From Escherichia coli (GTDB lineage: Bacteria; Pseudomonadota; Gammaproteobacteria; Enterobacterales; Enterobacteriaceae): a stretch of 64,000 bases of DNA. The notes under the pieces are model-generated. The model searched no databases. It was not told the DNA's origin and worked only from the letters and a program-made list of their open reading frames with translations. Shown piece by piece: positions 45,421-45,743 of this stretch; positions within the stretch are counted from its first letter, which is position 1; each line of letters starts with the position of its first letter. The DNA is taken from NCBI RefSeq assembly GCF_024223415.1, contig NZ_CP100500.1; one strand, 5' to 3'. The position numbers and the translations under genes are program-made.

Positions 45421-45743
45421 ATGTCCCATCAGAAAATTATTCAGGATCTTATTGCATGGATTGACGAACATATTGACCAGCCGCTTAACATTGATGTCGT
45501 CGCAAAAAATCAGGCTATTCAAAGTGGTACCTGCAACGGATGTTCCGCACGGTGACGCATCAGACGCTTGGCGATTACATTCGCCAACGCCGCCTGTTAC
45601 TGGCCGCCGTTGAGTTGCGCACCACCGAGCGTCCGATTTTTGATATCGCAATGGACCTGGGTTATGTCTCGCAGCAGACCTTCTCCCGCGTTTTCCGTCG
45701 GCAGTTTGATCGCACTCCCAGCGATTATCGCCACCGCCTGTAG
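45421..45743 (+). pseudogene. soxS: soxS disrupted by 1-bp deletion in poly-A tract (or homopolymer sequencing error)
   Basis: N-terminus MSHQKIIQDLIAWIDEHIDQPLNIDVVAK is in frame from 45421 but stops at 45553-45555; the C-terminal 67 aa (MFRTVTHQ…SDYRHRL, 45540..45743) is in another frame; the gcAAAAAAtc run has 6 A where an intact frame needs 7. Confidence 0.7.

Follow-up and report, generated by a model that had tools for sequence, protein, structure and literature searches.

A one-base contraction of a poly-A tract probably marks soxS as an inherited frameshift pseudogene in a small clone of Escherichia coli

In a 64,000-nucleotide stretch of the Escherichia coli chromosome (contig NZ_CP100500.1 of assembly GCF_024223415.1; hereafter, the window), one A has been lost from a seven-A tract of soxS, and the gene is broken. 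The best explanation of the data as a whole, to which we give a probability of about 0.85, is a heritable −1 frameshift that is carried by a small clone and is predicted from the sequence to be a soxS null allele. Taken separately, the narrower proposition that the six-A tract is a genuine mutation, and not a sequencing error, appears very probable from the comparison of independent datasets.

The former coding region of soxS occupies 45421..45743 on the plus strand and measures 323 nt compared with 324 nt in the intact gene, as judged from alignment with soxS of E. coli EC1515. The sequence-only reading had counted six A where seven are needed and had placed the run to within a base of its true position; in the alignment, 465 of 466 bases were identical and the single missing A was the sole difference. 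The tract, GC-AAAAAA-TC, lies exactly at 45504..45509 (plus strand) in the Lys30 codon, so that the lesion is a −1 change in a mononucleotide run (A7 to A6) relative to intact orthologues. Both reading frames described in the sequence-only reading were found in the window. A 44-codon frame opens at the ATG at 45421, encodes MSHQKIIQDLIAWIDEHIDQPLNIDVVAK followed by NQAIQSGTCNGCSAR, and ends at a stop at 45553-45555 (45421..45555, plus strand), giving 29 native SoxS residues and 15 out-of-frame residues. The C-terminus of SoxS (MFRTVTHQ...YRHRL, 67 amino acids, residues 41-107 in their original frame) is stranded in a different frame at 45540..45743 on the plus strand, and it appears in gene calls as a 67-aa HTH_18/HTH_AraC protein of its own.

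Membership in SoxS, a protein of the AraC/XylS family and the MarA/SoxS/Rob group, was defined by the NCBIfam equivalog NF007584 with its curated cutoff of 174 bits. When one A was restored to the tract, the encoded protein was identical to E. coli SoxS (PDB 7W5W) at 107 of 107 residues and scored 228 bits against this model. As encoded, both fragments fall short of a full-length SoxS: the 44-codon frame scored 45.7 bits and matched profile positions 1-31 only, while the 67-codon frame scored 137.8 bits, also below the 174-bit cutoff, and matched positions 41-107 only. No single polypeptide carries both helix-turn-helix motifs, as the native sequence stops at residue 29 and the 3′ frame (positions 41-107) lacks the first helix-turn-helix in the profile search. 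Since neither fragment passes NF007584 and the restored sequence does, the locus is a soxS pseudogene and not a soxS gene.

The surroundings of the lesion are unaltered. The broken soxS is divergent from soxR and lies between ghxP and pdeC, an order shared with annotated EC1515, NCTC9112, KV7, S51 and GPEC1446, and the neighbouring genes are all full length in the window. The earlier expectation of an intact sensor and operator agrees with what was found here. The soxR gene (44871..45335, minus strand, 154 aa) scored 248 bits against the SoxR equivalog TIGR01950 (cutoff 116.9), and its nucleotide sequence is the same as in NCTC9112 and KV7, as is that of the soxR-soxS intergenic region. This region contains, in the divergent promoter at 45347..45364 (unstranded), the palindrome CCTCAAGTTAACTTGAGG, which is identical in EC1515, NCTC9112 and KV7 and is the known SoxR binding site.

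The alternative that survives best is that the strain truly carries seven A, and that six were called through a systematic homopolymer under-call both in the chromosome and in the Logan assemblies described below; we consider this unlikely. In its favor, all three of the indels that separate the window from NCTC9112 and KV7, which together with S51 and GPEC1446 are the complete genomes nearest to it, are single-A losses in poly-A runs, against about a dozen SNPs over the 59 kb that could be aligned. Besides the A7 to A6 change at 45504 in soxS, these are an A6 to A5 change between aphA and tyrB (54413-54417) and an A7 to A6 change upstream of dusA (62293-62298), both intergenic and both present relative to all four of the nearest genomes. 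The source chromosome is also absent from the RefSeq complete-genome set that was searched, and among complete RefSeq E. coli genomes no 100% match was obtained to either a 465-nt or an 81-nt soxS query. Against an under-call, soxS is the only gene in the 64-kb window that is frameshifted relative to its relatives; the 18 other runs of at least 7 identical bases in the aligned part of the window are all as long as in the reference.

The SNPs private to the lineage number ten (16799, 28769, 33855, 34254, 39528, 46360, 52685, 56436, 57994 and 61780). Six are synonymous and four nonsynonymous (in PhnL, PdeC A>T, YjbR V>E and DusA Y>C), a distribution that looks like real evolutionary divergence. 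Nine of the ten are in the GC>AT direction, four of these nine being G:C>T:A transversions, but ten private SNPs are too small a sample from which to infer a mutational signature or a mutator or mutagenised background.

Several larger features of the window also differ among these genomes. Positions 1-25497 (mdtO...phn...yjdN) are inverted relative to NCTC9112 and KV7, with the junction at about 25498, where a copy of IS1397 lies (about 25498-26930), and REP-like repeats (ggcctgataagacgcgc...) at 25400-25520 flank the end of the element at the junction. Because NCTC9112 has two oppositely oriented copies of IS1397 about 32 kb apart (at yjdM/yjdN and yjcO/gltP), the arrangement looks like an inversion mediated by the IS, unless the assembler simply picked one of two orientations. 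SNP-like differences from NCTC9112 and KV7 at 25516 and 25518 match GPEC1446 and are consistent with exchange between IS copies. Between yjcB and ssb, a presence/absence segment of ~950 bp (48044-48992) with a hypothetical 158-aa reading frame is present here and in the close relatives, and other E. coli lineages have about 100 bp in its place; in GPEC1446, IS1A is inserted at the same spot. Finally, a DUF2713-family gene (~62362-63383) and a small hypothetical gene (~54656-54860) are annotated as frameshifted in NCTC9112, KV7, S51 and GPEC1446, and the window does not differ from them at either gene, which makes these two older pseudogenes common to the lineage.

To find the closest relatives of the window, lineage-private amino-acid variants were used as exact-match probes in public data, the corroborating datasets being assemblies of reads (Logan contigs). 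The same six-A tract was present in three such assemblies from at least two projects: ERR3437659, SRR19977205 and SRR19977217. SRR19977205 (18,106 nt) and, from another project, ERR3437659 (11,975 nt plus 6,317 nt) match the window at 100% identity, A6 included in each case; such agreement at every base over 12-18 kb argues against a systematic under-call, and both assemblies keep A7, A8 and T7 runs at reference length as the window does. The third dataset, SRR19977217, has the window haplotype and A6 along with two further poly-A contractions (44436-44441, A6>A5; 49542-49549, A8>A7) and no SNPs over 16.2 kb. This lends something to the under-call explanation, as it indicates homopolymer noise in that run and calls for caution in using it as corroboration. 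Microevolution in a mismatch-repair-deficient background was considered for the difference between SRR19977205 and SRR19977217 and set aside, since two homopolymer indels and no SNPs in 16 kb fit read noise better.

Inheritance of the tract can be followed with an independent marker. The PdeC Ala>Thr variant, a C>T change at 46360..46360 on the minus strand, was found in only three contigs, each from a Logan assembly, and soxS is split in every one that was inspected. The more broadly distributed YjbR Val>Glu and DusA Tyr>Cys variants retrieve a sister clade, in which two isolates, GCA_044160685.1 (over 20.4 kb) and SRR31140989 (over 14.1 kb), each differ from the window at only three sites: they have A7 in soxS, C at 46360 and A at 48269, and both encode an intact 107-aa SoxS. 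A6 thus always occurs with T at 46360 (window, ERR3437659, SRR19977205 and SRR19977217), and A7 with C in the sisters. An under-call does not account well for a contraction that tracks a true SNP and is missing from at least two sister-clade datasets; this pattern indicates that the soxS deletion is a derived character nested within a small clade marked by an independent SNP, shared by descent, absent from the sisters and reproducible across datasets. The two intergenic contractions behave similarly, with A5 at 54413 and A6 at 62293 found also in the sister assemblies GCA_044160685.1 and SRR31140989 and in ERR1156339 and ERR3437659. Their recurrence in independent assemblies from other projects shows that they are real lineage polymorphisms and not assembly errors. 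Assembly error had been our first working hypothesis and was dropped on these grounds, that is, the intergenic contractions shared by independent assemblies and the sisters that differ at soxS and two SNPs. The frameshift suggested by the sequence-only reading is therefore upheld as real, while the homopolymer error that it offered as an alternative, a common cause of the same call elsewhere, fits the window poorly. The four A6 datasets may nevertheless represent one strain, in which case the mutation could date from a culture stock and not from a natural population.

How common the error is elsewhere became apparent from a survey of the same frameshift in public data, and the under-call explanation draws support from the fact that noisy long-read assemblies yield this soxS call en masse. 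The exact 44-aa product occurs in 69 blocks of a public gene index, and related 44-aa products of the same frameshift on other haplotypes occur on 373 and 106 contigs. In many carriers of the exact product, ghxP, yjcE, pdeC, uvrA and others are split and nearly every run of at least 6 bases is contracted, and for the commonest related product, 9 of the 10 largest contigs listed have shattered neighboring genes, so the base rate of artefact for a soxS A6 call is high. NDM6 (NZ_CP083869.1), a noisy assembly in RefSeq, GCA_033723935.1 and GCA_949813155.1 resemble the window in having 44-aa and 67-aa calls at the same A-run, but most of their homopolymers of at least 6 bases are contracted and the same four genes, among others, are split, whereas the window has no broken gene besides soxS, and its indels are corroborated by independent datasets.

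Among the 5,426 complete genomes, A6 in soxS was found in three, two clean and one noisy, all with another haplotype and none with that of the window. HST04 (NZ_CP013952.1) and JL05 (NZ_CP049936.1), which PGAP labels as "soxS, frameshifted" with intact neighbors, are like the window in having A6 for A7 at the same tract and intact soxR, ghxP and pdeC. Unlike the window, they have a K-12-like local haplotype (GTAGTC instead of GTCGTC), from which it follows that their A6 originated independently; it may be a real loss or a residual assembly error. The same choice between reality and error may apply to the O157:H7 run SRR094155, in which A6 is a one-base difference from complete O157:H7 genomes over 18.1 kb. 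A6 is also present in GCA_002484735.1, for which the closest complete genome shares only 98.8% identity, and Shigella entries likewise show a −1 change at this tract. A literature search found no relevant paper on soxS frameshifts or pseudogenes; a soxS frameshift pseudogene is nevertheless of a known kind that is already annotated in public genomes, and we regard it as ordinary and not mechanistically new.

Less likely again is that the tract is functional, with A6 and A7 as the two states of a reversible switch or with A6 partly expressed, such that SoxS would be reduced rather than absent. Ribosomes slipping by −1 on A-AAA-AAT, or slippage during transcription, could restore wild-type VAKKSGYS and so provide the leak; we consider these routes very improbable too. 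What recommends the idea is that a −1 shift on the A-run recreates the exact wild-type protein, that the tract has mutated repeatedly in unrelated backgrounds, and that a small leak could matter, as SoxS activity depends on its amount. Against it, phase variation or RNA-polymerase slippage needs roughly 8-9 or more bases, and this tract has 6-7; A6 is the only tract length in the four datasets of the clone, and the phase-variable tract entertained in the sequence-only reading is accordingly not borne out; and nearly every one of the 5,426 complete genomes has soxS in frame, the frameshift not being conserved among orthologues as programmed frameshifting or transcriptional slippage would have it. 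There is accordingly only a slim chance that A7 is a recurrent, semi-reversible switch by which E. coli and Shigella shed, and could regain, SoxRS, with a possibly leaky A6 tuning the regulon down.

Returning to a heritable null allele as the preferred reading, we infer both its mechanism and its phenotype. Replication slippage (slipped-strand mispairing) would most plausibly have converted A7 to A6, on the branch that leads to a small E. coli clone in a lineage related to NCTC9112, KV7 and S51; the clone would comprise the strain of the window and the strains or stocks behind ERR3437659, SRR19977205 and SRR19977217. Translation of the mutant gene is expected to stop after 29 native and 15 aberrant residues, upstream of both helix-turn-helices, with the last 67 codons out of frame, which should make the allele null; neither fragment should bind soxbox promoters, and low-level reinitiation or frameshifting on the A6 allele may occur. 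Because SoxR, its operator and the promoter of soxS are undamaged, soxS transcription should still be turned on by oxidised SoxR, and yet no functional SoxS would be produced, so that SoxR is predicted to be cut off from its regulon and SoxR-dependent induction of sodA, zwf, fpr, nfo, micF, acrAB and others would be lost. MarA and Rob, which are encoded elsewhere and share much of the SoxS regulon, are unaffected and should still drive the overlapping part. For this reason, of the loss of resistance proposed in the sequence-only reading, the SoxR-dependent route stands as a prediction, and loss of multidrug resistance induction as a whole is too broad a claim.

An engineered counterpart is available for comparison in the Keio soxS deletion, which grows more poorly with redox-cycling agents (PMC2064960). 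The strain of the window is predicted to resemble this ΔsoxS strain in that the SoxR signal is not transduced and growth suffers in the presence of such agents, and differs from it in carrying a natural one-base frameshift that could in principle revert by +1 slippage and that leaves two translatable fragments.

For annotation more generally, a soxS "frameshift" is credible only when the neighboring genes are intact and independent data agree, because homopolymer errors in long reads very often produce the same call. If the allele described here is real, which the data indicate, the clone is a natural soxS-null E. coli in which SoxR would still sense redox-cycling agents and nitric oxide without being able to activate the regulon. 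Such a clone is predicted to be more sensitive to compounds of the paraquat type and to lack the drug tolerance that SoxS confers through acrAB/micF, and it would be of use both for strain-level annotation and as a natural knock-out for comparison with its soxS+ sister isolates.
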